A DNA stretch of 64,000 nucleotides from Ascidiella aspersa (lineage: Eukaryota): contig OZ004609.1 of the NCBI GenBank assembly GCA_963924565.1, positions 10,788,001 to 10,852,000 on the forward strand, read 5' to 3'. Below the pieces are notes generated by a model. The model made no database searches and was not told the origin of the DNA. It worked only from the letters and a program-made list of their open reading frames with translations. Shown here in pieces: positions 4,708 to 41,195 of this stretch (its first letter is position 1; every line of letters starts with the position of its first letter). The position numbers and the translations under genes were made by a program.

Positions 4708-5435
4708 CTGATCTCTATGAAACCTGGATAGCGCAACTGCGTGCTTTGAAAGGTTCCAAAAGTGCGTAAATTTTGCATTACGGCTTATGGGAGAGGTATC
4801 TTAAAATTGTCGTTATGGCAATATTTGCCGAATTTTAAGGGATTATTTATGGTATTGGTATGCTTGACTATACACAATACTCTAATAAAGCAGAATAACT
4901 TGATTTTAGCTCCTGCTGATAGAAATATACTTCGTTTTTACTGGCACCAAAAAATTTTTTTTTTATTGCAACAAGGCAACGTCAAGTTAGGTAAAATCAA
5001 TTTATATGATATACAAATCTTTCGAATGGCCTTTTTGATCAGTCTAGTTAATGTATTTTTTATGTACTTAACTATGCTGGTTGGTAACGCTGTTCTGACA
5101 ACAACATTTCTTAGCATTTATTTTTGCATAATAGTAACAGCAGCAGGTAGTAGTAAGGGTTTTAATTGAAGCTATATGCATAAGTAAAATCAGTTATTTT
5201 ATTTAATTGCTTTTAATTTCTCATGGATGTCCGGAATTAGTTGCTGTGTTTTATATGGTGTTTGTCTGTGTCATCCACTAACAAACATTGGCCACCAGAT
5301 TCCATCACTAACTGGTGTTCAAATGGCAAAATGTAGGATATTATCACATTCCAGTTCATTTTTTGTTTATTGTCGTTACTCTGTTAGGAAAACATATTCG
5401 TGCATAAATAACTTATCCATAATACAAAATCTCTG
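4708..5435 (+). repeat. Dispersed repeat, homologous (inverted) to 19590-20070 and to 34680-34854 plus 35845-36070
   Basis: Shared blocks such as CTCCTGCTGA..AGAAATAT..TTCGTTTTTACTGGCACCA, GTTGCTGTGTTTTATATGGTGTTTGTCTGTGTCATCCACTAACAAACATTGG and GAAACCTGGATAGCGCAACT. Confidence 0.8.
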
Positions 5436-6164
5436 AATGTGTGGGCTGTACTGGATTCCTCTAGTCAATTCACTCCTCGCCTTCAGAGCAGCTTGTACTA
5501 ATAATACCAGTAGCAGCTCTTTGTTGTTGAGGGGTGCGTCGTCCCACGTGATGTTGGTGGTGTTTTCTACTACTTTCTTTATCACTTCCTTCGCCTCTTG
5601 CACTCCCCATAACTTCTGGGTCATCTTGCCCATTTTTGCTAGTGCGCTTTTAAGTGTCCTCGATCCTTTGTCAAAACTCATGCTGTTGTATGCCCTCTTT
5701 GATAGCAGTTCTGTAAAATTGAAATCTTCTTCGAAGAGTCTTTCTTTGAACGCGTTTACACTCGGTTTCGTATCGAAGCTTTTTGCCACCCTTTCTTCTA
5801 TTTGTAGCCATTGATTGTTGGCCTTTTCGAGGAGACCCCTTTGTCCATTAATAGATGCGCCTCTGCCGGGATGGCGACCCATGCCGCCGTATTCTTCACC
5901 ACTCCTTTGTACGTCGTCGTTATACCCAATTTCAACAGGGCGTCGTGCACGGATTTTTTCTCAGCATTCCTGGGGTCCCCCCCTGGACGGGACTCACGGT
6001 CATGAACAATCCATGGGTGGTAATTGGAGCTGCCCTTCTCCACCGGTCCGATGTAAATGATTGCCTTCTCGCTCCTGGTAATTCCCGTCTGTCCAGTTGT
6101 TGTCGTAAAAGCAAACTTTCTTGCCCGATATCTTTAATCCGTTTTTCTCGTTCTCTGTATTCAT
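5435..6164 (-). pseudogene. Endogenous ssDNA virus Rep fragment, copy A (divergent, frameshifted)
   Basis: YRARKFAFTTTTG..IYIGPVEKGSSN, then DTKPSVNAFKERLFEEDFNFTELLSKRAYN and ELLLVLLVQAALKARSE..GIQYSPHI. Collinear with the Rep at 10373-11380 and ends just before Walker A. Confidence 0.9.
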
Positions 6165-6919: not shown

Positions 6920-9900
6920 GAACATTAAGGACGGAACAACTTTCGGCGCTCGTCTAGAATCCTACCACAACGAACATTATTTGGGTTAGGGTGTCGGTTA
7001 GCGTTTGGGTTTGGGTGAGTCCAGTAATAGTGTTAAACAATATTACTTGACCTACCCACACCCAAACACTAACCGACACCCTAACCCACATATTATGCAT
7101 TGCTTAATATTTATTTCAACGTTGTGGTAGGATTCTAGACCAGCGCCCAACTTTCATGTTTTTTGGCTGGTAAAATATATTTCTTAAATTTTGCTTTTCA
7201 TATAGCTAGCCGTAGTAAACGATAGATTAACGTTCTTTTTAGACAGTGAAACTCGTATTCTACCGCGTTATACATTTTGTACCCTTTGTGTTTCTGGAGT
7301 TAGCAGCCACCACCTCCTCGAAATACTTTCGTTTTTTCTTCTGTCGGCGCCACATGAACTCATCGAAAATATCCGGGGATGAATTTCTCTGGTGCGCCAT
7401 TTACCTCTTTCAGGTACCGTTTAGCCGCGCACCACAAGCTTTCGGTGATTGGACCGAATGGTTGACAGTATCATGATATGTATGGAGTGATATCAAATGG
7501 AAAACGAACAATGTGGTTACCTGTTAAATTATTATAGGCTTGTCACTTATCAGACCAAATTGTAGTTCCAGGCATGATGTTGGCCTGAATAATCGGCAGT
7601 AATGTCGTGGCACGGTTTGAAGGAAGCATTCCCTTAAAGCAGCAGTGTTAAGTAGACATAAAATGAAAATCTTATCTTGTCGAGATGTCCACGCCGCCAA
7701 ATACCCCATGTTTGGGAAGTAGGGCGAGCCTGGGCATTTGCACTTGACTTGCGTCGTGCCACCATTGATTGACGCGTCGATGGCCACCACATGCCTGCCC
7801 TACTTCCCCGATCATTTGCCGATTAACAATAAGGTCTGCAGAGCATATCTTTGAAAAAAGGTTTGTTTAAACCAAGTTAAGTTTGTAAAATACTGGCTAA
7901 TCTGACAAAGTACTGTCCCTACTTTGTATACTAAGTTTAGTGGAAAATATTTAAAGATAATTGTAATAATAACTCTTCGAAACACATAAAACAAAAAGAG
8001 TAAACACCAAAAATTTAGTTTCAACCTTACAAAATGTATTTTTCCACCTAAATTTTACGACATACGATCAATCCTGCTGATTTTGTTGCTAGGAAGCCAT
8101 TATAACATGCTTGAAAGAGCTAACTAGGTTAGAGGCGCTAAAGTGTTAAAATATTAAAGTTATTGGGGGGGGGGGGGGGTGGCTCATCGGTCCGGCCTGA
8201 TCATAGGTCCCGGTTTTCCCTTACAAAGTTACAATGCCCCTTTTGTAACACTGTTCAGAATTTGTCATATCTTAACTACTGGCTACTCCCTCCTCACAAA
8301 AAATGACTGGATATGTTAGGAACGCACTCACAGTAAACCCGTTTTAGCTTTTTCAAAACTATGTTCTTTCCGTACGTTTTTTTACCATACTCTTACTTAC
8401 ACTCCATCCAGGGTTACATTAAACTGTTCGGACTTTTGGGATGTTTTTTTAAATCAGAATAATTCGGATTTTGTTTATCTGAGTAACAAGCACTATCTGT
8501 TTGACAGTAAAACAAAATTTTGTACATTTAAAAACTGTATTAAGGATTTCTGGCGCTAATCCGGGTCGCGCTGCCGGCGCCACATAAACTCATCTAGGTA
8601 GCCTGGTATGAGATGTGCCGGAGCGCCGTTCACACTTTTTGGGTAGCGTTTTGCTGCACACCATCATAGACTTTCAATATGGTTTGTGTGAACGCCAGCT
8701 GGTGATAAAAATTCTATTGAATCGTGCTGGAACCCTATAGCAGGAAAAAAAGTTTTATCTCATCAATTATTTTTTTTATAAACGGGAATAGCGCAACAGC
8801 TAAAGCTATAAACATCTACATTGTTTTAAACTTACACGACAAGTTGGCGTAGGCGCGCCACATGTCGGACCATATTGTGGTGCTTGGCTCCTGTTTGCCA
8901 ATATAATGGGTGAAGCATTCTCTAGAAAAACATAAATAAAAATGAAGTGATATCGCAACAAATATGTATATACGGTAAGTTGATGTTATTAAATGAACTC
9001 ACTTGGTGTCGACGCCGCCAAATACCCACAATTGGGGTATATTGACCATGCCTTATTGGCGCTTAGCTTACGCCGAGCCACCAGGGGATTATTCGTCGAT
9101 TGCGACGACGTGGCCGACGCCGCCTATCAGTGCCCTTTCAGCTAGCAAATCATGTGAACAAATCTGTGAAAAACATAAATTTTTATAAAACTTCAAACGC
9201 ACGCATAGTCGCATACATACACACACACACACGCGCAAAAACGATAAACATAGTAGTTATACTTCTAACAAATTTCGCCAATTAGTCTGTTTCGACAGGG
9301 CAGTTTGGCGGAGGATATCTATCGTCGTTGCTTTATATGCCCAATGGTAACCCAGTCAGAAATTTTAATGCGGGCCTTACTCGAACTATCATCGGTGTTA
9401 GTATGGCCCATTACCAGATTACCACAGAAACCCCATAGATATATCCCAGCTGGGAGACCGGAAAGGTAACATCGGCCCATGTTAGATTTTCTTTGATTTC
9501 CCATACATGGCATCCCACATATGGTTCAAGCGTGAAACTAGCCTGGCCAAATATATTCCTGCTTTACACCAATTTTAAAATAGCAAGCAATCAATATTTA
9601 TTGTCATTAAATTTCCGCGCACAGAAGCACAATAACAGCACGTACAAAAATATCAAACGGTTATTCAAAAAAAAAAGTTAAAAACAATTGAAGAAAACGG
9701 CTTTAAAGAATAACTTAGGAATGATTAAATATAAACACAAATAGAAAAAAAGAATTATAAACATTGCTGTAATAAAAAAAACATGGATAGAACTTTTGAC
9801 ATCACACGAGTTACAAACCGCAAAATACTAAACAATTAAATCATAAGTTATGGCCAATTCTTTCAGAGTTTTGACAGTTGATGGAATGCTTAACCAAGAG

Positions 9901-10180
9901 GTTCGTAAACAATAAATAGCTAAATGTAACTGTTGACAGTATACTCATAAACACATATTAATGCAATTTATGCCTGAGTTTTGGTTTTCATATCCACTTG
10001 TAATTGTTTCTTGGTGGTTACAAACACAATATTGAGTGTTGAGTGAGGATATGGAACATCTGTAATAACATAATTAGTGTTAATGTATGTGTATACATGT
10101 TTATATACACATAAATATTAAAATTATGTGCTAGTAAAACGTTTGAACTAACTATGTTTACAAAAGCAACAAACCTGCTC
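6920..10180 (+). repeat. Segmental duplication, copy 1 (~3.25 kb)
   Basis: Matches 13189-16450 at offset 6269-6270 with about six differences by eye. Identical ORF translations appear in both copies. Confidence 0.97.
6945..7147. mobile_element. Fold-back MITE, Merlin-like (GG termini, 8-bp TSD)
   Basis: TIR GGCGCT(C/G)GTCTAGAATCCTACCACAACG, TSD CAACTTTC (6937-6944 and 7148-7155), nearly palindromic interior. The superfamily call rests on termini and TSD only. Confidence 0.8.
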
Positions 10181-10299
10181 AAAGCAGTGCAGTGTAATAG
10201 TGTATCTAATTAGCATATTTAAAATTTTTTTTTTATTGAAAAATTTTTTTCTTTTTTCTTAGTTCGGAGGGTCAAACGAACTCCCATCATAACCCCTCT

Positions 10300-10393
10300 G
10301 CACTAAACACTACACTATTAGTAATGTATTTCATTTTACACTAGTGTTTTAGTGTATTTTATTTTACATTACTTATAGTGTAGTGTTTAGTGC
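10300..10393. other. Viral hairpin H1a, downstream of Rep
   Basis: Perfect 19-bp stem GCACTAAACACTACACTAT/ATAGTGTAGTGTTTAGTGC, 9-bp stem AGTAATGTA/TACATTACT, 7-bp stem TACACTA/TAGTGTA and a 6-nt loop. Confidence 0.92.
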
Positions 10394-11380
10394 CCACACA
10401 ACATATACAACATATATACCATTGTGGTGCATAAACTTCACGGCGGCCAACAGGGCGTCGTTATTAAAGAAGGCGTTGCCTGCATCATCTATCTTCAGCA
10501 CCTTATGGCGAAAACGTAGCGCCATCTGCCCCACGCCCTGCGAGTCGTTGGTGAGGATGCTTGCATACTCCACTGGGAAGAACATTTTCCCGAGGACGGT
10601 TTTACCCTTCCCCGCTACCCCGTGTAGCATTATATGCGGAGCGTATTCTATCCCTCCTGCTTCCGATCGCGCCTCCAATCCCGCTTGTATCAAAACTAGC
10701 AGCAGCTCGTCGGTCGTTAGTTGATCTTGATTGTACTCTATGTTCTTTGCTTGATTTATGATATGGTAGATACCCTTTTTCGCTTCTTCTACCGTCCATT
10801 TGGGTACTTGGTTCTTTGCCATTTTTTTGAGAGCCTTTTTCAATTTATTTTTTTTCTTTCCAAAGGTCACCTGGTTGTAGGCACGCTTCGCCAACAGTTC
10901 CGGAAAAGAGAAATCTCTTTGAAAGAGCCGCTCTTTGTACACGTTCATGGACGGCTTCGTGTCGTATTCCGCGGCTACTTCCTCGGCTATCTGTTGGTAT
11001 TGACCCTTGTTTGCTGCCGACCCTTTCTTCATATGCTGCTTTATCTCTTCGGGAACGTCGGTTGGCTCGGCGTGCTTGTACATGTACCTGCACCATTCTG
11101 CTTGATTCTTGATTGCCGCTATGTATGTCAATGTGAACCCTAGCTTTTTGAGTAGGTCTGTCGCTTTCTTCTTGGTTATTGCCAATGGTTGCGCTCCCCC
11201 CTCCTGACTCTTCATGATGCACATCCCATGATGGTGGGGTATGTTCGAGTTGCCTTTCTCGAGGGGCCCTACATAGATTGTGCATCGAGCCGTCTGGGTT
11301 ATTCCAGGCTTCCCAGCGACCGTTGTAAAAGCCCATTTTCGGCCTCTGTATGAATTTGCGGTGTCTTCGCTTCCATTCAT
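10373..11380 (-). CDS. rep: CRESS-type Rep (HUH endonuclease + partial SF3 helicase), C-terminally deleted
   Basis: Motif I WAFT, motif II PHHHG, motif III YMYK, Walker A GVAGKGKT, Walker B KIDD. Departs from copy C after KFMHHN because of a ~675-bp deletion. Confidence 0.9.
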   Translation of the reverse strand: MNGSEDTANSYRGRKWAFTTVAGKPGITQTARCTIYVGPLEKGNSNIPHHHGMCIMKSQEGGAQPLAITKKKATDLLKKLGFTLTYIAAIKNQAEWCRYMYKHAEPTDVPEEIKQHMKKGSAANKGQYQQIAEEVAAEYDTKPSMNVYKERLFQRDFSFPELLAKRAYNQVTFGKKKNKLKKALKKMAKNQVPKWTVEEAKKGIYHIINQAKNIEYNQDQLTTDELLLVLIQAGLEARSEAGGIEYAPHIMLHGVAGKGKTVLGKMFFPVEYASILTNDSQGVGQMALRFRHKVLKIDDAGNAFFNNDALLAAVKFMHHNGIYVVYVVWALNTTL

Positions 11381-11510
11381 CGTGGTAAATCAGTAATAAA
11401 TCTTCTGTTAACCTATTAAGCCTTAAGGTTTTCTGGAAAGCAGTGTCAAGAGGATTAGGTTTAAGATAATTAGTTGCTATATTTCTGATAACGTCGATAG
11501 TAGGAAACAT
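10845..11510 (-). CDS. Overprinted accessory ORF (221 aa) overlapping the 5' half of Rep
   Basis: Starts 130 nt before the Rep ATG, behind a TATA-like motif. Homologous open frames exist in copy C (MFPTID...PNPLDTAFQKTLR) and copy D. Confidence 0.7.
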   Translation of the reverse strand: MFPTIDVIRNIATNYLKPNPLDTAFQKTLRLNRLTEDLLLIYHDEWKRRHRKFIQRPKMGFYNGRWEAWNNPDGSMHNLCRAPRERQLEHTPPSWDVHHEESGGGSATIGNNQEESDRPTQKARVHIDIHSGNQESSRMVQVHVQARRANRRSRRDKAAYEERVGSKQGSIPTDSRGSSRGIRHEAVHERVQRAALSKRFLFSGTVGEACLQPGDLWKEKK

Positions 11511-11559
11511 TTTTGCAATGGTACATTTTTATTTGCACGAACATATATACACACAGATT

Positions 11560-11647
11560 ACACTAAACACTACACTAAAGTTAATGTATTTCATTTTACA
11601 CTAATGTATAGTGCAGAACAGATTACATTAAATATAGTGTGGTGTTA
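11560..11647. other. Viral hairpin H2a, between capsid and Rep blocks
   Basis: ACACTAAACACTACACTA...TTAATGTA...CACTA-ATGTA-TAGTG...TACATTAA...TAGTGTGGTGTT. The right arm overlaps the capsid stop codon. Confidence 0.88.
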
Positions 11648-13063
11648 AAATGGATTTGCGAATACGACATCTAGTTCCATTGTATATGGTATGCAAATGA
11701 AGTTGTCGGTTTTGTCGGTATATCCCACTGTTGACGTCGAGTACGTGGCTCCTCGTAGTTCCTTTTTGATTGATCCCTCATAGACATGCATCTGGGTTGT
11801 TAGTGCTTGGCATTGTGGTGATACACAGGTGCTTGCCTCCCACCATGGTGTTTCGTAATATTGTGCTATGGTCTTGTTTGTGCTGTGTGTCGCGTCGTTG
11901 CATATGGTGTGCGTATCTGATTGCAGGAATTTGATCGGTATTTTTGTGAATGAATCTCCCAGCTGGTATCTTGTGCAGTCCTGATATTCTTCCAGTGGGA
12001 ATTCTGGTACGTCTGCTGAGTTTGTTGTTTGGTATCCATAGTCGAATCTCAATCTGTGGTTGAATCCTGTCTTTTCTGTTGCGACGTCGAGTAACATTAT
12101 TGGCATATTTCTTGTCTTGTCTGTACTGTTGTTTAGTGCTCCTGCTGGCCATAAGTACATGTTCCAATTTGAGAACTTTATCATAGTATACTTGGGTGCT
12201 AGTGACTTGACTTGTGATAGCTGCGTTCCTGTTGTTAGTCCATTTGGCCCGTAGACTCTCCATCTTCTTCCTAACGTTGTTCCTTTTGATTCTAGTGCAC
12301 TCATCTGTCTGTGTATCACTTCACTATGTACGATCATTTGTGCTCCAGCCGCAGGCAACGAAACGCTTTCATAAGTGTTGCCATCCAGCCACGTTTTCCA
12401 TGGTTTGAAGGTTCCCTTTGGGTCGTCGACTGCTTTAGTGTAGAACCACCAGACTCCTTTTGTTTTGCATTTGACCTGGACTGTTGGTTGTACTGGGTGC
12501 ATTCTAGGCACTGGCAATGTTCTTGATCTTCCTCCTCCTCCCCCAGCTCCTGCACTATTAGTCTCCGCAAGTCTTGCTCTTTTCGCTGTTGGTTCTCCGT
12601 CGTCCATAAGTGACTGGGAATTGATGGATAGATCCTCCATCGCCTCATTCATTGGACTTTCTATAGGGCTGTTTCCTCGTATGTTGGCGGGGGTTGTTGT
12701 AGTTGCTGTTGTAGGCCTTGTTCTGTTGTAATTCTGTATCTGCGGCCAATTCTTCTCAGTGCGTGCCTTTTTCGCAGGGGGCATGTGAGGTAGTAATGCC
12801 TTCTTAGCCTTGAACACACCACGCACGATAGTCCCACTAACGCCAGGAATATGAGCGCTATTTCTGAGTAGATCGCTATCCGCAGAATTAAACTTGAAGT
12901 ATGCTTCGTTACCCAATTTTTGATATTGCTTGTCGTGTTCTTTGCAAGCCTCATCAAGTTCCCCAGTAGTGTCTTCCCCTATAGCATTGAACGGTCCGCA
13001 ATGTGGATGACCTGGTATTGTAATTCCACCTGTTGCTAACTTCCTCTTCGAGATCAATCTCAT
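11645..13063 (-). CDS. Parvovirus-like capsid protein with N-terminal phospholipase A2 domain (472 aa)
   Basis: PGHPHCGPFN (Ca-loop variant of PGYKYLGPGN), LDEACKEHDKQY (catalytic HDxxY), YFKFNSADSDLL, NLS-like PPAKKAR and PTAKRAR, glycine tract GAGGGGG. The ORF is uninterrupted. Confidence 0.88.
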   Translation of the reverse strand: MRLISKRKLATGGITIPGHPHCGPFNAIGEDTTGELDEACKEHDKQYQKLGNEAYFKFNSADSDLLRNSAHIPGVSGTIVRGVFKAKKALLPHMPPAKKARTEKNWPQIQNYNRTRPTTATTTTPANIRGNSPIESPMNEAMEDLSINSQSLMDDGEPTAKRARLAETNSAGAGGGGGRSRTLPVPRMHPVQPTVQVKCKTKGVWWFYTKAVDDPKGTFKPWKTWLDGNTYESVSLPAAGAQMIVHSEVIHRQMSALESKGTTLGRRWRVYGPNGLTTGTQLSQVKSLAPKYTMIKFSNWNMYLWPAGALNNSTDKTRNMPIMLLDVATEKTGFNHRLRFDYGYQTTNSADVPEFPLEEYQDCTRYQLGDSFTKIPIKFLQSDTHTICNDATHSTNKTIAQYYETPWWEASTCVSPQCQALTTQMHVYEGSIKKELRGATYSTSTVGYTDKTDNFICIPYTMELDVVFANPF

Positions 13064-13112
13064 AATGAATGTAAACTTACCTTATTTGCATATTATATTC
13101 CCTTTCTTGTCT

Positions 13113-13189
13113 ACACTAAACACTACACTAATACTAGTGTACTTCAAACACCACTACTCACTAGTGCAGATCCTTTACACTGAATTTAG
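13113..13189. other. Viral hairpin H3a upstream of capsid, right arm truncated
   Basis: ACACTAAACACTACACTA, inner stems AGTGTA/TACACT and CACTA/TAGTG. Cut after TTTAG where the duplicated host flank resumes. Confidence 0.8.
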
Positions 13190-16100
13190 AACATTAAGGA
13201 CGGAACAACTTTCGGCGCTCGTCTAGAATCCTACCACAACGAACATTATTTGGGTTAGGGTGTCGGTTAGCGTTTGGGTTTGGGTGAGTCCAGTAATAGT
13301 GTTAAACAATATTACTTGACCTACCCACACCCAAACACTAACCGACACCCTAACCCACATATTATGCATTGCTTAATATTTATTTCAACGTTGTGGTAGG
13401 ATTCTAGACCAGCGCCCAACTTTCATGTTTTTTGGCTGGTAAAATATATTTCTTAAATTTTGCTTTTCATATAGCTAGCCGTAGTAAACGATAGATTAAC
13501 GTTCTTTTTAGACAGTGAAACTCGTATTCTACCGCGTTATACATTTTGTACCCTTTGTGTTTCTGGAGTTAGCAGCCACCACCTCCTCGAAATACTTTCG
13601 TTTTTTCTTCTGTCGGCGCCACATGAACTCATCGAAAATATCCGGGGATGAATTTCTCTGGTGCGCCATTTACCTCTTTCAGGTACCGTTTAGCCGCGCA
13701 CCACAAGCTTTCGGTGATTGGACCGAATGGTTGACAGTATCATGATATGTATGGAGTGATATCAAATGGAAAACGAACAATGTGGTTACCTGTTAAATTA
13801 TTATAGGCTTGTCACTTATCAGACCAAATTGTAGTTCCAGGCATGATGTTGGCCTGAATAATCGGCAGTAATGTCGTGGCACGGTTTGAAGGAAGCATTC
13901 CCTTAAAGCAGCAGTGTTAAGTAGACATAAAATGAAAATCTTATCTTGTCGAGATGTCCACGCCGCCAAATACCCCATGTTTGGGAAGTAGGGCGAGCCT
14001 GGGCATTTGCACTTGACTTGCGTCGTGCCACCATTGATTGACTCGTCGATGGCCACCACATGCCTGCCCTACTTCCCCGATCATTTGCCGATTAACAATT
14101 AGGTCTGCAGAGCATATCTTTGAAAAAAGGTTTGTTTAAACCAAGTTAAGTTTGTAAAATACTGGCTAATCTGACAAAGTACTGTCCCTACTTTGTATAC
14201 TAAGTTTAGTGGAAAATATTTAAAGATAATTGTAATAATAACTCTTCGAAACACATAAAACAAAAAGAGTAAACACCAAAAAATTTAGTTTCAACCTTAC
14301 AAAATGTATTTTTCCACCTAAATTTTACGACATACGATCAATCCTGCTGATTTTGTTGCTAGGAAGCCATTATAACATGCTTGAAAGAGCTAACTAGGTT
14401 AGAGGCGCTAAAGTGTTAAAATATTAAAGTTATTGGGGGGGGGGGGGGTGGCTCATCGGTCCGGCCTGATCATAGGTCCCGGTTTTCCCTTACAAAGTTA
14501 CAATGCCCCTTTTGTAACACTGTTCAGAATTTGTCATATCTTAACTACTGGCTACTCCCTCCTCACAAAAAATGACTGGATATGTTAGGAACGCACTCAC
14601 AGTACACCCGTTTTAGCTTTTTCAAAACTATGTTCTTTCCGTACGTTTTTTTACCATACTCTTACTTACACTCCATCCAGGGTTACATTAAACTGTTCGG
14701 ACTTTTGGGATGTTTTTTTAAATCAGAATAATTCGGATTTTGTTTATCTGAGTAACAAGCACTATCTGTTTGACAGTAAAACAAAATTTTGTACATTTAA
14801 AAACTGTATTAAGGATTTCTGGCGCTAATCCGGGTCGCGCTGCCGGCGCCACATAAACTCAATCTAGGTAGCCTGGTATGAGATGTGCCGGAGCGCCGTT
14901 CACACTTTTTGGGTAGCGTTTTGCTGCACACCATCATAGACTTTCAATATGGTTTGTGTGAACGCCAGCTGGTGATAAAAATTCTATTGAATCGTGCTGG
15001 AACCCTATAGCAGGAAAAAAAGTTTTATCTCATCAATTATTTTTTTTATAAACGGGAATAGCGCAACAGCTAAAGCTATAAACATCTACATTGTTTTAAA
15101 CTTACACGACAAGTTGGCGTAGGCGCGCCACATGTCGGACCATATTGTGGTGCTTGGCTCCTGTTTGCCAATATAATGGGTGAAGCATTCTCTAGAAAAA
15201 CATAAATAAAAATGAAGTGATATCGCAACAAATATGTATATACGGTAAGTTGATGTTATTAAATGAACTCACTTGGTGTCGACGCCGCCAAATACCCACA
15301 ATTGGGGTATATTGACCATGCCTTATTGGCGCTTAGCTTACGCCGAGCCACCAGGGGATTATTCGTCGATTGCGACGACGTGGCCGACGCCGCCTATCAG
15401 TGCCCTTTCAGCTAGCAAATCATGTGAACAAATCTGTGAAAAACATAAATTTTTATAAAACTTCAAACGCACGCATAGTCGCATACATACACACACACAC
15501 ACGCGCAAAAACGATAAACATAGTAGTTATACTTCTAACAAATTTCGCCAATTAGTCTGTTTCGACAGGGCAGTTTGGCGGAGGATATCTATCGTCGTTG
15601 CTTTATATGCCCAATGGTAACCCAGTCAGAAATTTTAATGCGGGCCTTACTCGAACTATCATCGGTGTTAGTATGGCCCATTACCAGATTACCACAGAAA
15701 CCCCATAGATATATCCCAGCTGGGAGACCGGAAAGGTAACATCGGCCCATGTTAGATTTTCTTTGATTTCCCATACATGGCATCCCACATATGGTTCAAG
15801 CGTGAAACTAGCCTGGCCAAATATATTCCTGCTTTACACCAATTTTAAAATAGCAAGCAATCAATATTTATTGTCATTAAATTTCCGCGCACAGAAGCAC
15901 AATAACAGCACGTACAAAAATATCAAACGGTTATTCAAAAAAAAAAGTTAAAAACAATTGAAGAAAACGGCTTTAAAGAATAACTTAGGAATGATTAAAT
16001 ATAAACACAAATAGAAAAAAAGAATTATAAACATTGCTGTAATAAAAAAAACATGGATAGAACTTTTGACATCACACGAGTTACAAACCGCAAAATACTA

Positions 16101-16450
16101 AACAATTAAATCATAAGTTATGGCCAATTCTTTCAGAGTTTTGACAGTTGATGGAATGCTTAACCAAGAGGTTCGTAAACAATAAATAGCTAAATGTAAC
16201 TGTTGACAGTATACTCATAAACACATATTAATGCAATTTATGCCTGAGTTTTGGTTTTCATATCCACTTGTAATTGTTTCTTGGTGGTTACAAACACAAT
16301 ATTGAGTGTTGAGTGAGGATATGGAACATCTGTAATAACATAATTAGTGTTAATGTATGTGTATACATGTTTATATACACATAAATATTAAAATTATGTG
16401 CTAGTAAAACGTTTGAACTAACTATGTTTACAAAAGCAACAAACCTGCTT
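13189..16450 (+). repeat. Segmental duplication, copy 2 (includes MITE copy 13214-13416)
   Basis: Near-identical to 6920-10180. Confidence 0.97.
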
Positions 16451-16574
16451 AAAGCAGTGTAGTGTAATAGTGTATCTAATTAGCATATTTATAATTTTTT
16501 TCTTTTTATTCAAATTTTTTTTTTCTTTTTTTCTTAGTTCGGAGGGTCAAACGAACTCCAATCATAACCCCTCT

Positions 16575-16667
16575 GCACTAAACACTACACTAAACTTAAT
16601 GTATTTTATTTTACACTAGTACTTAGTGCAGAATAGATTACATTAAATATAGTGCAGTGTTTAGTAC
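16575..16667. other. Viral hairpin H1b
   Basis: GCACTAAACACTACACTA...TTAATGTA...CACTA-GTACT-TAGTG...TACATTAA...TAGTGCAGTGTTTAGTAC. Confidence 0.88.
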
Positions 16668-16707
16668 CCACAATAACATACGATATATACAACATACAAT
16701 AATACAA

Positions 16708-16902
16708 TTAAAATTCGATTCCACTTTCTTTCATTGCAGCTTCAACCATGTCTATCATTTCGTAGTCCAATGCTTGTAATTCTTCGTCTTGTTTTTCTTC
16801 GTCTCGTTTTTCCTGTTGACATGTGCACTGCGCACACATCCCATTGTGCTCACAACTTCTTCCGTCGTCATAGAAGTCTTCTATGGTTGTCTCAGCGGCC
16901 AA
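16708..16902 (-). CDS. Small acidic Cys/His-rich viral ORF (64 aa)
   Basis: Overlaps the Rep stop codon and ends ~40 nt before the hairpin. Contains CEHNGMCAQCTC. Confidence 0.5.
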   Translation of the reverse strand: MAAETTIEDFYDDGRSCEHNGMCAQCTCQQEKRDEEKQDEELQALDYEMIDMVEAAMKESGIEF

Positions 16903-18329
16903 GCCCGTGGCAGTCTCAACACGTGATGTCTTGGCCGCCGGTTCTTCTTCTTCTGATTCATACGCCCTTTTACTTCCTCTGCTGCTTTGTGTGCTCTCTT
17001 GTCCTCTTCTTCTTCCTCTTCTTCTGCGCTATCTTCTTGTAGTAGTTGTGATACTTTTCTCACGTACTCCGCTATTTCAATCAACGATGGCTGAACAGCC
17101 ATTTGGCGTTGCTCCATTTTCTCTACGATTTCTTCTACTAACTCCATTAGTACCTCGTCGGTAATATCCGAGGTGATTCTTTTCTGTTGACCGAGGTTGG
17201 GATTTTCGCTTGCTTCGTTCCACTCTGCGGTAACAAATCTTCGCCGCATTGGCGCCATATCCTCGAGCCCTGCCATCTTGACTAACGGGTTGTTGGCGTT
17301 TGTAGTAATAAACGCGCAGGTCGCCTCGTTGTCCTGCCGGTCGCCGTGAGTCTTGGCGCTCCACGCATTGTGGTGCATAAACTTCACGGCGGCCAGCAGT
17401 GCGTCGTTGTTAAAGAAGGCGTTGCCTGCGTCATCCACCTTCAGAACTTTATGACGAAAACGTAGGGCCATCTGCCCCACGCCCTGCGAATCGTTGGTAA
17501 GGATACTCGCGTACTCTACCGGGAAGAACATTTTCCCGAGGAAGGTCTTCCCTTTTCCCGCCACCCCGTGTAGCATTATGTGGGGGGCATACTCTATGCC
17601 TCCTGCTTCTGATCTTGCTTCTAGGCCCGCCTGAATCAGTACCAGCAACAGCTCGTCGGTTGTCAATTGATCGTGATTGTACTCTATGTTTGTGGCCTGT
17701 TTAATTATATGATAGATTCCTTCTTTTGCTTCTTGTACTGTGTCCACTTGGGCACTTGATTTTTTGACATCTTCTTTAGGGCCCTCTTCAATTTATTCTT
17801 TTTTTTTGCCAAATGTCACCTGGTTGTACGCACGCTTGGCCAGGAGTTCCGGAAAAGAAAAGTCTCTCTGGAATAAACGCTCTTTGTAAACGTTCATACT
17901 TGGCTTGGTGTCGTACTCGGCGGCCACCTCCTCTGCGATTTTTTGATACTGCCCCTTGTTTGCCGCTGATCCCTTTTACATAAATTCTTTCATTTGATCC
18001 GGTACCTCTATGGGCTCGGCATGTTTGTACATGTACCGAGCCCATTCCGCTTGATTTTTCACTGCTGCCACGTAGGTCAACGTAAACCCGTGGTTTTTGA
18101 GGAGCTCTGTTACCCTCTTCTTCGTAACTGCCGGTGACTGTGCTGCCCCCCCCTGATTCTTCATTATGAACATTCCATGATGGTGTGTAATGTTCGAGTT
18201 GCCTTTCTCTAGGGGGCCTACATAGATTGTGTAGCGTGCCGTCTGGGTAATTCCAGGTTTCCCAGCTACCGTTGTGAATGCCCACTTTCGGCCTCTGTAG
18301 CTTGATGCTTGCTCTTCTGATCCATTCAT
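16881..18329 (-). pseudogene. rep: Full-length CRESS-type Rep (~480 aa reconstructed) with one nonsense codon and two small indels
   Basis: WAFT, THHHG, YMYK, GVAGKGKT, KVDD, B' KTHG, motif C FITTN, Arg finger MRRRF, acidic then basic tail. TAA at 17976-17978, +1 in the poly-A near 17800, +2 near 17742. Confidence 0.92.
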
Positions 18330-18459
18330 GATGATATATTAGTAATAAATCGTCAGTTAATCTATTTACTCTTAAGGTTTTCTGAAATGCAGTATCAAGT
18401 GGGTTAGGTTTAACGTAATTTGCTGCTATATTGCTTATCATATCAATCGTAGGAAACAT
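17788..18459 (-). CDS. Overprinted accessory ORF, copy C
   Basis: MFPTIDMISNIAANYVKPNPLDTAFQKTLR..., homologous to 10845-11510 and open over the same span. Confidence 0.65.
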   Translation of the reverse strand: MFPTIDMISNIAANYVKPNPLDTAFQKTLRVNRLTDDLLLIYHHEWIRRASIKLQRPKVGIHNGSWETWNYPDGTLHNLCRPPRERQLEHYTPSWNVHNEESGGGSTVTGSYEEEGNRAPQKPRVYVDLRGSSEKSSGMGSVHVQTCRAHRGTGSNERIYVKGISGKQGAVSKNRRGGGRRVRHQAKYERLQRAFIPERLFFSGTPGQACVQPGDIWQKKRIN

Positions 18460-18510
18460 TTTTTCAAATGAAACATATTTATTTGCGTCAACATATATAC
18501 ACATTTTTTT

Positions 18511-18575
18511 GCACTAAGTACTACACTATATTTAATACAGTTAAAATTGCACTATAAAAGTAGTACAGTACTAGA
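18511..18575. other. Viral hairpin H2b (shortened variant)
   Basis: GCACTAAGTACTACACTATATTTAAT...TGCACTATA...TAGTACAGTACTAG, in the same position as H2a and abutting the capsid stop. Confidence 0.7.
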
Positions 18576-18798
18576 ACGGATTTGCGAATATGATGTCACA
18601 TTCCATTGTATACGGTATGCAAATGAAGTTGTCCGTCTTGTCCGTATATCCCGTTGTTGACGTTGTGTATTGGGCTGCTCGTAGTTCCTTTTTGATTGAC
18701 TGGTCGTAGACGTGCATCTGGGTTGTTATTGCTTGGCATGATGGTGATTGACACGTACTGGCTTCCCACCATGGTGTTTCGTAGTATTGTGCTATGGT
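18571..18798 (-). pseudogene. Capsid C-terminal fragment, copy C
   Basis: TIAQYYETPWWEASTCQSPSCQAITTQMHVYDQSIKKELR...FICIPYTMECDIIFANPF* aligns with the copy B capsid end. Confidence 0.92.
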
Positions 18799-18835
18799 GG
18801 CTTTTTATGGTGAGACAAAGCCAAATCCGGTTTAG

Positions 18836-23639: not shown

Positions 23640-24090
23640 AACAAAAACATATATTTTGATATAAATTGATTGGAGCAAATTATTTGATTAAATATAAAAT
23701 GATTTAAAGATAAAGGAGATATTAACTAAAATGATTGAAAGATAAAAAGAAAGGTAAAGAACAGTATTCAAAAGAAATGGTTGATTGATTTATGAAAGAT
23801 GACTCTTTTAACTAAAAAATATAATTGATTAAATGATTTGGACAAACAATAAGTTGATTGGGGCAGATTATTTGATTAAAAATAAAAAGAAAGGTGAAGA
23901 ACAGTATTAAAAAGAAAATGGTTGACTTATGAATTATGACTCCACACAATGATTTAAATTGAAGTGGGGTTATAATAACTAAAAAGTTGTTTAATAAAAT
24001 GATTTGGACAAACATTAAATTGATTGGGGCACATTATTTCATAAAATATAAAATGATTAAAACATAAAATGAAGGGAAAGGACAGTATTT
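23640..24090. repeat. Degenerate AT-rich tandem repeat (~3 units)
   Basis: GATTGG(A/G)GCA.ATTATTT.AT.AAA.ATAAAA recurs at ~23668, ~23856 and ~24022. Confidence 0.6.
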
Positions 24091-27000
24091 AAAGTAAATA
24101 ATTAATTTTAACAAAGTGTTCATCAGTAGCAACAGCAGAAAGGTTATCTTTTTCTAATAAAATACTGTTTTGGCAAGCAAAGTAATTTTCGTTTGCTGCT
24201 GGTTCTTGTGTCATTCCTACACATGTGCTGTGGAACCACTGTGGACACCGAGAGCATTGTACCCAATGAACTTTTTTAGGGTCATCACATAGTTTGCACT
24301 TGTTGTTTCTTAGTGTTCCTTCAAGACAAGCCCCAACAACAGAATTGTATACTTGCTGGCGATAGTCAAATACTCCGGAATGCACAAGATTTTTGTTTGT
24401 TGCAAGCCATTTTGCATACATGCATACTAGGACCCCACAGCTATCTGTGTCTGCTTGTAGAGTCTGTGGCCAGCTTTCCACAGATGTAATGGAAAATTTG
24501 AACTTTTGTGTCATAAGATGATTTATAAATGCAAAAGCCCTTCGAACACTCATGTTTGTTTGAGTGCAAACCATTTGAACGGGATCAAGGTACAAAAGAA
24601 TTCGCTTTTCAATATCTACTGCAAGTAATATCCAATGTCGTCCACTTGGGTTCCACGGCACAAATATCCACTTCTTGTTAGTTAGAGATATTTTAGACAA
24701 CAATCTTTTAATTGAGCCTTTTTGCTGTAGAATTAGGGCAACCATTGATGACACATAGAGGATGTTGCTATGACATACACTAAGTTGCCATAAAAAAACA
24801 TTTACAATCTCATCATATACATCCTGCACGAAAACTGTGATCATGGGACAGCAAAACCAGTAATTCTCCTCTGGGTATGTGTGGCTCAATAGATTTTATT
24901 TGTAGCATTGATAAAGAATGTGGACCATTTTTAACTATGGTGTGTTCATGATGTTGAACAACATTAAGGTTCGGCGTGATTTTTTTAGTGTTACACTTTT
25001 GTCTTGGGTTCTGTAGCTCTTTAGCAGGTGATGGCAATGGCAGCATATTGTCTTTGTGTGTACCACAACTTGCAGAAAGTTTGTTTTGTATTCTTGGGGT
25101 TGGATATAGCGTGACAACTTGATGCAATGCCTGCATCTCATTAGCGAGTGCTCCAGATCTTGAAGCAAAGTAGTTTGGTTTTGGATGTTTCCGAGGAATC
25201 TCATTATGACAAAGACTGTTTGAAGGATGCTTTCGTTTGATTTTTAAAGAAGTTTTTGTTAAATCTTTTTTTATTGACTTGTTTGTACAATATTTTGTTG
25301 AATCTAAAGCATTACGCGAAACTTTTAACCCAGCATCATAACTGCATGTTTTTGTAATAGCTATAATAACCTCAGAGAGATTTTGCTCAACTTCTTTTAA
25401 AACTTTCTCGGATCCAGCATCATATATCAAATTTTTTATTTCTGCAAGTTGGTCTACAATGTTTTTGGTAGTCTTGGGGTTTGGTTTGTCATCAGTTTTT
25501 GGTGTGTAGTAAAACTCAGCGGATGCTTACACTCATTGCTTGTTACTGTTATATTTTGATCTGTAGTTGAAATTGGAGTGCCAACAGAACTCTCATTTAA
25601 GTTTTCTTTAGGTGCGATCTTCCTAACAATGTCATCGTCTAGTGTTAAAAACACAGAATTGCTGTACCATTGAGGTAAGCTAAACCAAGAAACGTCATCA
25701 AATGTTTTGAAAATGGCAAACATGTGCTTGCACGGCAAAATATTTTGTCTGAAGTCAGGGCATGTACATTTTGGAAACTCCTGTGCAGAGCCAAGTCGAA
25801 CATTATATATCTCATTATTTAAAGTGCTTTTTACAGTAAAAGTATTGCCAATCCTTGAGATACTTCCAGCCTTAACACCTGTGGACTGTGCAATTCTTTG
25901 CATGCAAAACTTAAAAGGTATTCGGGCGGTTTTTCAAATAAAAAGGAAAATTATCATTGTACTTTCTGTAGGAACCTGATGACCTCAGATTCTTTTCCTC
26001 GTACCTGTATTACAAAATATATTTAGTAAGCAACAGGCATACTGTTAATTTAATATTGTTACCTTCGTTTAGCTTCTAGAAGAAATTCTTTATGCAGAAT
26101 TGTTACTAATCCTGAAAGTGACTTATCTGTGCGAAATTTTATGTGGCACTCCTTAAGAACGCGGTTCTGCCTCTCCACACCTTGTTGGTTCTGATTAATA
26201 CTTTCAGTCTATCTGCTCGATAAAGGTACACCCATCGCTATAACAAAACTATTTCAAAATTCTTAAAAAATGTACAAATATACTTTTTAATATATTATTA
26301 TAGTTTAACCTTCTCTTTTAGCCACATGTTCTCAAAGTATCTTTGTAATTTCAAGTTGTTTTGCCAAAGCTCATTTGACCTTAAATTCTGCAATGCTTTA
26401 ATAAAGACACTTTTTGAGTTTCTGCCTGAGCTACACTTCTAATATGTTTTAGAACTTCCTCTCTTCTGTCCCCAACATTATTTTCAGTCCTTTTTACCCA
26501 TCTTTCCCATGCCTGCTCTCGATGGAAATCACAAATTAATACCCTGCAATCTGCAGAAAAATATTAAATAAATAACTTGTAAATCTTTGTAAAACCTACT
26601 TCAACAACAAGCAAAAATGTCTTCAATAATTATTATAGTACCACCTACATTTGCTTTACTCCCAAGAATGTTTTTACCTGTAAAAGTTCTTTCTATTGCA
26701 TTTATCTCTGCATCACATTTGTCCGTCATGAAAAAAGTAGGACTCCAATTAGGACACCATGATTTTAAAACATTCAGCGCTTCTTCAATATCTGCCTGCC
26801 TTTCATTCTGTGTAAACATTGGTTTTTACGCACAAGAAAAATAAAGGTAGGGCATATTTTGATGTTTTATATGTGGCATCCAACCGGCAGAGATATCTTG
26901 TCCATAACGGAGAAGCAGTCTGCGTTGCCAAGCAAACTGGTGGACAAATAGAAGCGCTGACAGTTGGAGAATAAGAGCACAATCATCAGTATTTTTTTCT

Positions 27001-35836: not shown

Positions 35837-36786
35837 GTATTGTGTATTAAAGTACTAAGCATACCAACATCACACTAATCCCCTAAAATTCGGTAAAATA
35901 ATTACCAAATATTGTCATAAAGACAATTTTAAGATATCTCTCCTATAAGCCGTAATGCAAATTTTGCGCATTTCAGGAACCTTTCAAGATGGCGTCAGAG
36001 CTTTCTAATTGGCTTCAAAAACCGCTCACGCGTGCCGTTAGTTGCGCTATCCAGGTTTCATTGAGATCAGCGATGTCAACTTGACACCCAAAACAATTTA
36101 TATGTCCACAGTACCCTCTTTATAACACTGGTCAGAATTTGTTATCTTAACTACAAAATGGCCTTTTCAAGGCAAAATTCCTCGAAGCTGTCTTTTTTAG
36201 AGTCTGTTGGCCTTAGAAATTTGTTTTTTTTAATTTACTCTTCAAAATTCCCGATAAATATTTCTCATATATCGTAATCTTACCAGATGAAATGACATAT
36301 TCATCATGTGACGCAGGTTAAAGTATCATCTATTCCTATGGGATGGTTTCCACCACTAGGGGTCGCGCGGACCGACTCAGATGAAGGCGCATATTTTCAT
36401 AATGTAAGAGATAGGCTGTCTGTGTCAAATATGGGCTAAAATTAAATTATAAAGGTTTTGTTGCGGTCTTTTTGAGGTAAAACAATAGAAAATGTTGTGG
36501 AACGCAACCGCGCCATTCCCGAGCACGCGGCTCGAGGCATTCTTGTGTTATTTTAATTGCTATGCGTTGTTTGTGTGTACGCGCTTGATTTGTGCCTACT
36601 GCCGGAATGTAATTGGTGTGTTTGTAATTACTTCGTGAGCCTATAAAAGGCTGTTCACTTACTACTACGTTACCATTCCATTTTACTGATTTCGACTGAA
36701 TACAACTTAAGTTACAACAAACTGTGCTTATTTGGACTCTGTAAAGAAGCAAGGCGCAAACGTGATTGAAAACACAACAGAGTTTT

Positions 36787-36804
36787 TGGCGACGAGGATG
36801 GGAT
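36787..36804 (+). promoter_or_regulatory. Primer-binding site complementary to the tRNA-Ser(GCU) 3' end
   Basis: TGGCGACGAGGATGGGAT is the reverse complement of ATCCCATCCTCGTCGCCA. Confidence 0.85.
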
Positions 36805-36845
36805 CGGTCAACTGAACAACTTTCAATCTCAACGTTTGTGTCAAT

Positions 36846-39800
36846 ATGGAGAAGCTATTGGAGACGATGCAGAAGCAGATGAAACAGCAACAACGACAGC
36901 ATGAAGAGCAACAACGACAGCATGAAGAGCAACAACGACAGCATGAAGAGCAAATGAATCTTATCCTGTCTGTGTTGGAAAGGTCTTCTGGTCCCGCTGT
37001 TACCAATTCTAATGTTGCTGCACCTAGCTTTAACCCTTTTGATTCTACGACAGAATTGTGGGATGACTACTGGTCTCGCTTCTCAACATTTATGAAGGCT
37101 CATGCAATATCCGAGAAGAGGGTTGCCCAAGTGTTTTTAACGAACCAAACCACGACAACTTACAAGCTGCTGTCCAATTTAGCAGGACAAAGTTCGCCAG
37201 CGAAAGACGTCAACGATCTAACAATGAATGAGATTGAAGGCTTCATGAAAGATCAATTTGATCCCAAGCGTTTTATTATTCGCGAAAGGTTTCGGTTTTG
37301 GAGCAACATGAAGCGCAAGCCAGGTGAAACGGTGCAAGAATTAGCCGCCCGTATTCGTCACGATGCTGCTACTTGCGATTTCACCTCTATCAAAGATCCG
37401 TTGGATGAAGCTTTACGAACCAGGCTCATCTGTTCAATATCCAATGAAGCGGTGTTGAAGGCCATGTTCAAACTCAAGTCAGATGAACTTACTTTCTCTC
37501 GTGCGATTGAGGTTGCCATGCAGACGGAGGATGCGGCGCAAGTTGCCAAGGAAACCGTCTATGGGACGAGCGGTTCTGTGCGTAAGGTGCGCGGATCCAA
37601 GAAGCAGTTTACAAAATCCGCACCGAATGAGAAGCCCAAAGAAGCTGCCCGGTGTTATCGCTGTGGGAAAACTGGTCATTTTGCGCCGGTTTGCCGTCAC
37701 AAGAATGCGACGTGTCGATATTGCAATCGTATAGGTCATACTGAAGATGCTTGCCGTAAGAAGAAGTCCGATGTGGTCAATTCGAGGACGAATGTTCATT
37801 TGCTGAAGTCAATTTCCACTCGTTCCCCACTAAACAAGTTGAAGGTTGTGGTATCACTTTTTGGCAAATTTTGCGAATTTGAGCTGGATACAGCAACCAG
37901 TGGAAATTTCTTGTCTGTCCACGATTGGAAGAGAATCGGGTCGCCTAAGCTTGGCGCTCCTGATCGACGTTTTAATTCTGCGACAGAGCACCCAGTGCCT
38001 TTGTTGGGTATGTTTACGACGCCAACTACTTATGGTGGTCGAGTCTTTGATCAAGATTTCTTTGTCACGAAAGTTCCATGCTTAAATTTGCTTGGTCGCA
38101 ATGCCATATGTTCTTTGGAGATTTCGGTTGACGACATACTGCATCATTCATCTTCCAAAGATTGCGTGAATTCCGTTGTTACTTCGGGCGACCAACTCTA
38201 TCTGCCTTTACAAGATGCTTGCCGAGGTCTTTGCAACGAGTTTAAAGACATTTTCAAACCTGAACTGGGTTGCTTGAAAGGTTTAGAGCTTGAAGTGAAG
38301 TTTCAAGCGGAGGCTAAACCGGTTTTCTTTAAGCACCGTTCTGTGCCATTTGCGCTACAAGAAGAAGATGTTGCCCGTGGATATGACGCGGGAATTGCCC
38401 GAGGAATCTGGACTCCAGTCAAGTTCAATGACTGGGGTACACCGATGGTTCCTGTTCGAAAAGCACCGTTGTCAACTCACAACAGGCCACGGCTAAGACT
38501 TTGCGGGGATTACTCAGCCACGGTAAATCCCCAATTGGCACTCCATCGACATCCACTACCTCTTCCAGATACGTTGATGCAGAAACTTCGAGGAGGATTT
38601 GGTTTCACAAAAATCGATCTTGCTGATGCATACAACCAAATACGTCTAGGTCCCGAAAGCCGGAAAAGGTTGGCGTTGAGCACTCACCGAGGTGTCTTGC
38701 TGCAAAATGTATTACCGTTTGGCATCACCTCGGCTCCGGGATACTTTCAACAGATTATGGACGAACTGACGCAAGATCTTCCTGGAGTGGCTGTATATCT
38801 TGATGATTTACTTGTCAGCGGTTCATCGGCAAAAGATCACTTAAACAATCTCCGTCAATTGCTTCAACGTTTAAGTGAGAAGGGGCTTCGCTGTCGTTTC
38901 GAGAAATGCAAGTTTGCACAACCCACAGTTGAATACTTGGGTCATTTACTTCATAAAGACGGCATCAGGAAAGCTTCCAAACTCGATGCTGTGCTCAATA
39001 TGCCTGCACCGAAAAACGCATCGGCACTACGTTCGTTTCTTGGGTCGGTTCAATTTTATAGTAAATTTTTGCCACCAAGTTTTTCTTCCATTGCTGAACC
39101 TCTGTATCGTCTGACTCGAGACAAAGTTCTTTGGAGTTGGAATAACGAAGAATCAAAAGCTTTCCGTCAATTGAAGACATGGCTGTCTTCTCACAATGTT
39201 TTAACTTACTTTGATCCCTCTCTTCCTATTGGGATATCTTGTGATGCGTCAAATGTGGGCATTGGTGTCGTACTTTTTCATCGCTATTCGGACGGAAGCG
39301 AAAGGCCAATTGCCAATGTCTCAAAGTTGCTCTCCTCCAGTCAGCGCAACTACAGCCAAATTCAAAAAGAGGCTCTTTCAATTATCTTCGCACTGAAGAA
39401 ATTTTACCAGTATCTTTTTGGTCGTGAATTCATTCTTGTCACCGACCACAAGCCACTGTTGGCACTTTTTGGTCCTACAAAGCCAACTCCTCCACTTGCG
39501 GCAAATCGGTTAGCACGATGGGCGCTTTTCCTTGGTCAGTTTAAATACAAAATCGAGTACAGGAAGACCGCCAGTCACCAGAACGCCGATGCACTCAGCC
39601 GGTTACCAGAAGGGGAAGATGCCTATTTTGACAAAGAGGAAACTACAGATGATGTCGACACTGTTTGCACCATCACTACGCTAAGTCGTCAAGTCCAGCC
39701 CACAGACCCCAACACCATGAAAAAGGAATCCGGAAAAGATGATGTTCTTTCCCGAGTCATGCGTTTTGTCCAACACGGTTGGCCAACAACTTTTTCCTCA

Positions 39801-40663: not shown

Positions 40664-41195
40664 TTTAAAAGGGGAGGTGTTGTGGAACGCAACCGCGCCA
40701 TTCCCGAGCACGCGGCTCGAGGCATTCTTGTGTTATTTTAATTGCTATGCGTTGTTTGTGTGTACGCGCTTGATTTGTGCCTACTGCCGGAATGTAATTG
40801 GTGTGTTTGTAATTACTTCGTGAGCCTATAAAAGGCTGTTCACTTACTACTACGTTACCATTCCATTTTACTGATTTCGACTGAATACAACTTAAGTTAC
40901 AACAAACTGTGCTTATTTGGACTCTGTAAAGAAGCAAGGCGCAAACGTGATTGAAAACACAACAGAAAAAATAGTTCAGACACCGTATGACATCAAATGT
41001 TTTTCGTTTCACATTCGAAAGCGGGAAGTTTCGTCCTATTGTGTACTGCAGTCTAGAACAACGTTATTCGTAGGGACGTATCGCGATTTTTATACAGTTT
41101 ACATATTGTGTTTGAAGATATCTTAGTTAGGATGTGCATGTCTAGAAGAGCTGAACCATGAACATCTTTAAAAAGTTCATTTTCTGGCTATTTTG

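Follow-up and report, generated by a model that had tools for sequence, protein, structure and literature searches.

Two broken viral insertions in the window

The stretch analysed here, referred to as the window, comprises 64,000 nt from Ascidiella aspersa (OZ004609.1, positions 10,788,001–10,852,000 of the forward strand; coordinates are window positions unless a contig is named) and belongs to a 39-Mb contig in an assembly of 308 Mb and 75 contigs. It contains two broken viral insertions, copies A and B, both on the minus strand, in which a capsid gene with a phospholipase A2 (PLA2) domain is followed by an open reading frame (ORF2) and an overlapping gene for a replication protein (Rep) of the type found in circular Rep-encoding single-stranded (CRESS) DNA viruses. 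The junction between the capsid end and the Rep start has an identical layout in both copies. With 78.6 % identity over 1461 nt they represent different strains, which have a synonymous divergence (dS) of 1.35 in Rep and 38 differences between their 248-nt right ends. The left terminus is absent from both. The viral features of the window are:

13064–13189, minus: remnant upstream of the capsid gene of copy A, with half of the repeat palindrome, a TATA-like box and the GCAAATAA motif; no left hairpin
11645–13063, minus: capsid gene of copy A, 472 aa, a single open frame (13063–11648) with PLA2, basic stretches resembling nuclear localisation signals, a Gly tract and a predicted jelly-roll core
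12803–13027, minus: PLA2 domain of the type found in the unique region of parvoviral VP1 (VP1u), capsid residues 13–87, with HCGPFN, HDKQY and AD (PF08398, E 1.5e-11)
11648–12529, minus: capsid core, residues 179–472, predicted single jelly-roll from a low-confidence model (predicted local distance difference test, pLDDT, 51)
11561–11646, unstranded: repeat block between capsid and ORF2 of copy A, sharing 89.5 % identity with the right-end repeat palindrome of copy B
10845–11510, minus: ORF2 of copy A, 221 aa, frame 11510–10848, overlapping the Rep start in another frame, an NS2-like position
10420–11380, minus: Rep of copy A (Rep A), ATG at 11380; HUH nuclease, helical linker and SF3 helicase as far as Walker B, the remainder deleted
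10175–10422, minus: right end of copy A, with a 94-nt repeat palindrome (10300–10393), an A-rich stretch and the inner arm of the terminal palindrome (−43.3 kcal/mol, z −9.0)
18571–18798, minus: capsid remnant of copy B, comprising the final 75 codons and sharing 84 % aa identity with A
17788–18459, minus: ORF2 of copy B, encoding 223 aa and sharing 58 % aa identity with its counterpart in A
16711–18329, minus: Rep of copy B (Rep B), with an acidic tail; in-frame stops near 17977 and 17794, frameshift near 17030
16447–16710, minus: right end of copy B, with the repeat palindrome (16575–16665) and the inner arm of the terminal palindrome to its inferred tip
5427–6142, minus: older, more decayed Rep fragment, 42–50 % aa identity
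63546–64000, plus: first part of another Rep copy, internally deleted and running past the window end, 93–98 % aa identity to A

Together with copies outside the window, the layout is: left hairpin, capsid with PLA2, ORF2 overlapping Rep, Rep, right palindrome. The host of these germline copies is an ascidian and its mitochondrial code is that of a tunicate: the mitochondrial COX1 gene (G000:C75) contains eight AGA/AGG codons, several at conserved glycine sites (e.g., DPGG.GDP and TV.GLTG), the usage that characterises ascidian mitochondria. Contig C7 carries another COX1 fragment, perhaps of nuclear location. Two sequencing runs of the same organism (X1 and X2; one study, possibly the source sample) behave as its genomic DNA, and their short-read contigs include stretches identical to copy B; a third run, X3, did not reach the viral genes, which has no bearing either way.

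Rep combines a CRESS-type nuclease with an SF3 helicase

Rep A carries KWAFT (residues 15–19), PHHHG (48–52), YMYK (99–102), GVAGKGKT (254–261) and KIDD (296–299), and its viral part stops near 10420, after the deletion. The complete set of SF3 motifs (Walker A, VDD, KTHG, ITTN and RRRF) is found in frame 17792–16884 of Rep B. Rep thus has an HUH nuclease with motifs I–III fused to an SF3 helicase, as in Cressdnaviricota. The spacing between motif II and Walker A is 202–209 aa in this family vs. 113–135 in the CRESS comparison groups.

The Rep A model (pLDDT 80) contains a compact nuclease of about 115 residues (residues 7–121), whose best structural match is RepB of plasmid pMV158 (Z 8.2, root-mean-square deviation 3.0, 103 residues aligned); the Reps of faba bean necrotic yellows virus (Z 7.8, 2.4, 81 aligned) and duck circovirus (Z 7.5, 3.1, 86 aligned) also match. 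Every named match of Rep in BFVD is a CRESS Rep, and the Atlas neighbours are plasmid and CRESS Reps (0.94–0.95). Parvoviral NS1 domains are not among the structure-search matches listed for Rep, an absence from the listing that does not exclude NS1 likeness. In profile comparisons the nuclease gave 91 % to CRESS Reps vs. 0.1 % to two parvovirus sets, which shows its type and not a lack of homology, and the SF3 helicase gave 97.4 % to CRESS vs. 83.9 % to parvoviruses. By profile and fold, then, the Rep nuclease is CRESS-type.

We also built a helicase tree from 135 columns (24 family, 12 parvovirus and 20 of 34 CRESS rows), in which the Rep family forms its own clade (100/100, branch 4.9), separate from the parvovirus clade (100/100, branch 3.4).

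No Pfam family exceeded the cut-off for Rep in the window frames, nor in any of the 26 relatives scanned, and the Rep profile gave weak P-loop matches only against PDB sequences. A search of 1.84 billion representatives, including NCBI nr, returned 52 matches at E ≤ 0.001. Among the 28 that were looked up the sole names were "hypothetical protein" and one Styela entry, the uncharacterised Styela clava protein XP_039269095.1 (P0020), a distant Rep relative that is probably an endogenous viral gene. IMG/VR scans contained no relative of the Rep family.

Capsid protein and ORF2

The PLA2 region of the capsid protein matches, besides PF08398, VP1 of bufavirus (E 6.7e-12) and of adeno-associated virus (AAV; E ~3e-10), and in sequence comparison the likeness to parvoviral VP1 is limited to this N-terminal region. 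The basic stretches are PPAKKAR and PTAKRAR. Nearly all top matches of the core model in a structure search were jelly-roll capsids, including those of beak and feather disease virus (Z 7.0), a bat circovirus (Z 6.8) and parvovirus 4 (Z 5.8). The best BFVD match has E 2e-7, and the named rows are mostly capsids of circular-DNA viruses; ESM Atlas matches were below 0.9 and serve as leads only. These results support a capsid protein composed of a PLA2 domain, with predicted enzyme activity, and a modelled jelly-roll core. In one relative, the ORF at the capsid position (L058:3644–5245) aligns with the family core and has no PLA2 match, so that family members may have acquired or shed this domain.

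The sole Pfam match of ORF2 is DUF2817, below the cut-off (E 0.017). ORF2 shares 30 % identity over 112 aa with that of a distant relative, a similarity that may stem from the Rep frame it overlaps.

Gene order and selection across the genome

A genome search identified 58 Rep and 26 capsid matches, on contigs C1, C3, C5, C7 and C8. The capsid matches correspond to 13 places, in 12 of which the capsid end is followed on the same strand by ORF2/Rep; the thirteenth keeps this order on either side of a deletion. A related Rep was also present at 23 metagenome loci, many of them re-assemblies of one locus; 13 have a capsid match upstream (tblastn), and three more (L058–L060) have an ORF at the capsid position. 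The genome size, from summed parts, is roughly 3.7–4 kb, in agreement with relatives' contigs of 3519–4378 nt.

The dN/dS ratio is 0.15–0.25 for the capsid gene (five pairs) and 0.02–0.03 for Rep (four pairs), with three more Rep pairs saturated; between copies, dS in Rep ranges from 0.8 to saturated and dN from 0.03 to 0.25. Since the copies differ mainly at synonymous sites, we infer that they diverged as working viruses and entered the germline repeatedly.

Much of the preliminary description of this DNA, made from the letters alone, is borne out by these data. It had proposed an endogenised single-stranded DNA virus with a CRESS-type Rep, possibly of an undescribed lineage; we find germline copies together with profile and fold matches, and the virus is probably undescribed. 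The Rep motifs that it listed are all present in Rep A and Rep B, and the VP1u-type PLA2 capsid with its putative nuclear localisation signals and Gly tract is likewise found. The jelly-roll that it expected in capsid residues ~180–472 agrees with the matches of the predicted core. Its view that the capsid/Rep pairing is no chance juxtaposition agrees with the junction common to copies A and B, and holds, like the cap-then-rep order, at 12 of the 13 capsid places. It was also right to treat the copies as two strains, both of which lack the left terminus; it put the genome to be reconstructed at ~3.6 kb. The 221–223-aa overlapping ORF, the 3.5-kb duplication described below, the Rep pieces at 5427–6142 and 63546–64000, and the loss of the left termini had gone unmentioned.

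Terminal palindromes

The left-end hairpin, of about 150 nt, is known from copies outside the window: some 180–320 nt upstream of the capsid start is a palindrome with a pair of short GC-rich ears and two copies of the TGACGTCA site. It occurs at seven places in the genome, and at five of these a capsid gene follows directly. Four hairpins are complete, all in one orientation, and fold at −39 to −61 kcal/mol vs. shuffle means of −22 to −24, with none of 60 shuffles as low in any case. Two weaker matches (72–73 %), at C5:7694932–7695052 and C5:7457567–7457687, have no listed Rep or capsid match adjoining.

Homology to the right end of copy B stops within 16445–16452 at six of ten other places, and the flanks are all different. 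At locus L026 both arms of a right palindrome of about 190 nt are kept, with the centre at the equivalent position, so that the breaks probably occurred at the hairpin tip. The right palindromes of relatives measure 120–280 nt, and their asymmetric arms are swapped in L068/L069 (one locus), L070 and L071 vs. L061 and L066. In AAV, such flip and flop orientations of the termini are cited as evidence for rolling-hairpin replication (PMC8195378), and bocaviruses have a Y-shaped left end of about 140 nt with ears and a bubble, one of their ends occurring in two forms and the other in one (PMC8242256). The two terminal palindromes, together with flip/flop in relatives, make a linear virus genome, copied by a rolling-hairpin mechanism, much more likely than a circular one.

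A common short repeat stands before the capsid and ORF2 starts (13064–13130 and 11510–11580), followed by the TATA-like box and GCAAATAA, and is palindromic after Rep (10300–10393). Another lineage of copies has a different end repeat, which suggests that the repeats near ends and genes are putative Rep-binding sites co-varying with Rep.

Host segment, duplication and neighbouring elements

Copies A and B are separated by one unit of a 3.5-kb duplication (6920–10422 = 13189–16695), of which the host parts are:

13189–16445, unstranded: repeat-rich host segment between the copies, not viral; duplicated at 6920–10175 with six differences
6920–10175, unstranded: second copy of the host segment
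13211–13419, unstranded: palindromic, high-copy host miniature inverted-repeat transposable element (MITE), 3105 candidates genome-wide

Both viral copies have one common host junction, and the 3.26-kb host segment starts exactly at the left-end break of copy A. This fits an integration in which copy A would have paired with the right end of copy B and copied its flank; old insertions may thus act as landing sites. The palindrome at 13211–13419 was considered as a viral terminus and rejected because it is a high-copy host MITE. At 16400–16445 the end of a host repeat, found at 98–100 % identity in at least 17 other places, abuts the viral right end exactly.

Across the genome viral copies are clustered in a few regions (C3:10.79–10.86 Mb, C3:5.09–5.19 Mb, C5:29.77–29.79 Mb, C5:33.07 Mb and C5:6.9–7.9 Mb), some of them in tandem arrays. 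Their neighbours are host transposons. In the window, a long terminal repeat (LTR) retrotransposon at 36493–40966 has a reverse transcriptase/RNase H frame of 1013 aa, and its LTRs, each of 289 bp, show 100 % identity: it is a recent insertion. DNA-transposon-like remains (24089–25933 and 43374–44723) include pieces of the Ulp1 protease, PHD and SWIM types as well as a frame for a YqaJ nuclease.

Interpretation and alternative explanations

We interpret the insertions as germline copies of a linear single-stranded DNA virus of roughly 3.7–4 kb that belongs to an unnamed family and of which several strains entered an ascidian genome, a reading to which we assign a probability of about 0.7. The lineage is probably such a family: the literature searched, which covered tunicates, ascidians and Styela clava and left most subscription journals outside its scope, contained no description of it. 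The circular single-stranded DNA signature of the preliminary description applies to the enzyme and not to the genome, because the termini indicate a linear hairpin form.

The genes, their order and the terminal palindromes are observed; the activities described next are inferred from parvovirus and CRESS biology. The left hairpin would prime a host DNA polymerase, while Rep would bind the short repeats that lie close to the two termini and before the genes, nick through its HUH motif and the motif III tyrosine, and unwind through SF3. The right end would be inverted each round, by rolling hairpin with terminal resolution there, and the capsid PLA2 would serve endosomal escape, as in parvoviruses. 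Host repair would finally insert the hairpin-ended DNA, often opened at the hairpin tip. In this view the virus would behave as a parvovirus with two unlike termini does, but with a CRESS enzyme as its replicase.

Several points weigh against this interpretation. Concerning structures, the capsid core model is weak (pLDDT 51), the nuclease Z scores of 7–8 are close to the background of the tool, and Foldseek on PDB gave no match at E ≤ 0.001. The CRESS-to-parvovirus control of the nuclease profile comparison likewise gave 0.1 %, hence the restriction of that test to type. The bootstrap of the helicase tree had not converged, its CRESS panel of 20 of 34 Reps represents one motif type, and an approximately unbiased (AU) test left a grouping of the family with densoviruses unrejected (18 log-likelihood units, p 0.062). 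As for the termini, the two-eared Y tip of the left hairpin, read by eye, has −6.3 kcal/mol vs. a predicted minimum of −8.1, flip/flop is clear only in relatives with 35–37 % Rep identity, and in the A. aspersa genome it rests on a 3-nt loop difference. Neither free virion DNA nor RNA was seen, the family being known from integrated copies and assembled contigs. Lastly, the tests that show no close similarity to Oomyviridae are indirect, no oomyvirus sequence having been compared.

This last point bears on an alternative that we regard as unlikely, namely that the virus is an animal-infecting, divergent branch of Oomyviridae or Lineavirales with reversed gene order. The hybrid viruses PHV-1/NIH-CQV, which the preliminary description gave as known mainly from metagenomes without confirmed hosts, are no longer unplaced: they now form the family Oomyviridae in the order Lineavirales, and their predicted hosts are stramenopiles (PMC12451638; 10.64898/2026.04.22.720165), and most records of parvo-like hybrid viruses (PHVs) are regarded as reagent contaminants without a known host (PMC13141889). 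A linear genome with a circovirus-related Rep and a PLA2 capsid is the combination that defines the family (PMC12451638, PMC13426907). The pairing of Rep and PLA2 capsid on a linear genome is therefore of a known kind, and what differs here is the gene order and the tunicate host. The BFVD top 50 for the capsid core also include a PHV capsid (rank 22) and two "parvo-like virus" proteins (ranks 44 and 46); these matches, however, have 12 % identity and rank amid generic CRESS capsids. On the Rep side, the named rows of the BFVD top 50 include no PHV Rep (best E 6.7e-5; many rows unnamed), and no PHV name occurs among the 28 of 52 Rep matches looked up. The family Rep and capsid profiles had no match at E ≤ 1 among 5252 frames of PLA2-pattern loci, and the PLA2 pattern scans gave parvoviruses and densoviruses, and no oomyvirus, among the matches listed. 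In PHVs the replication and capsid proteins are reported to be encoded by forward ORFs, as in Parvoviridae (PMC9703751), and their predicted hosts are stramenopiles.

We give little credence to a self-propagating, virus-derived HUH transposon that spread within the genome instead of by repeated infection. Such an element would account for the number of Rep matches, for the sharp common right ends and for the clustered and tandem copies. The mostly synonymous divergence of Rep, the purifying selection on the capsid gene and the variation of the end repeats between lineages argue against it, and no near-identical dispersed family of copies was seen.

Very improbable, in our judgement, is a highly divergent parvovirus of the NS1 lineage with swapped gene order, although it would have the hairpin termini, the PLA2, the NS2-like overlapping ORF and the long Rep with its acidic tail in its favour, as well as the AU value given above. 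The compact nuclease with motif I, with its CRESS profiles and folds, the DD of Walker B, the RRF arginine finger and the confinement of VP1 likeness to the PLA2 region all speak against it, and no Parvo_NS1 (PF01057) Pfam match was obtained in eight window frames or 26 relatives. A Rep inside parvoviral NS1, the outcome that the preliminary description had set against its own proposal, is not what the best SF3 tree gives, with its separate clades (an incomplete parvovirus panel of 12 sequences); SF3 alone provides no formal exclusion.

Least likely is that a circular CRESS virus was opened at the stem-loop of its origin on integration: this would explain the CRESS-type Rep and the tandem of Rep, palindrome and capsid in relative L071, whose capsid start is, however, truncated at the join, and against it stand the different long palindromes at the two ends, the right one in two orientations, and the finding of no right end joined to a left end among the fetched loci.

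The odds seem evenly balanced that this is an unnamed family- or order-level lineage in which the shift from rolling circle to rolling hairpin took place independently of parvoviruses and oomyviruses, and in which PLA2 was gained separately. If so, it would constitute a group of linear cressdnaviruses that infect animals, among them tunicates, which are the sister group of vertebrates; it would also offer a living model of the CRESS-to-parvovirus step that has been proposed. Few lineages pair a CRESS enzyme with hairpin ends, and this virus does so with a non-parvoviral gene order and with a host fixed by germline copies, not guessed from metagenomes. It makes testable the way in which hairpin ends are resolved by a CRESS-type nuclease, as well as the number of times that linear genomes and PLA2 originated. 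The work also flags as viral about 50 unlabelled protein clusters, one of them annotated as a tunicate gene.

Comparison with known virus groups

Oomyviridae (Lineavirales, Cressdnaviricota) resemble this virus in a linear single-stranded DNA genome, which is predicted here, and in their circovirus-related Rep and PLA2 jelly-roll capsid; they too are partly known from endogenous copies. They differ in that PHVs are reported to have Rep before capsid (PMC9703751), whereas here the capsid gene is upstream of Rep, and in their predicted stramenopile hosts vs. a tunicate. The capsid fold match shows only 12 % identity; the comparison draws on published descriptions and indirect tests.

Parvoviruses are considered descendants of circular CRESS viruses (PMC6668415). 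Those whose two ends differ (Protoparvovirus and Bocaparvovirus, family Parvoviridae) share the long right palindrome and the ~150-nt left hairpin, which has a bubble and short GC-rich ears; the VP1u PLA2 and the Gly tract are also common to both, and the overlapping NS2 of Iteradensovirus is comparable to the small ORF over the replicase. In contrast, the virus described here has CRESS-type nuclease and helicase motifs, a capsid gene upstream of Rep (monosense parvovirus genomes having the NS cassette upstream of VP) and a capsid core of ~290 aa with no detectable sequence similarity beyond PLA2.

Circoviridae, Nanoviridae, other Arfiviricetes and the plasmid Reps of the pMV158/pCRESS type have HUH motifs I–III and an SF3 helicase with DD and RRF in common with this family, and provide the best folds for the nuclease and the capsid core. 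These groups are unlike it in the hairpin-ended linear layout, the PLA2, the longer spacing between motif II and Walker A and the lack of a curated Pfam Rep match seen here. Swazi bat megaparvovirus-like viruses have their PLA2 on a separate ORF, the capsid gene after NS1 and a genome of ~6.4 kb (PMC13426907); as in the virus described here, a PLA2-encoding ORF lies upstream of the replicase and endogenous copies name the host (PMC13426907).

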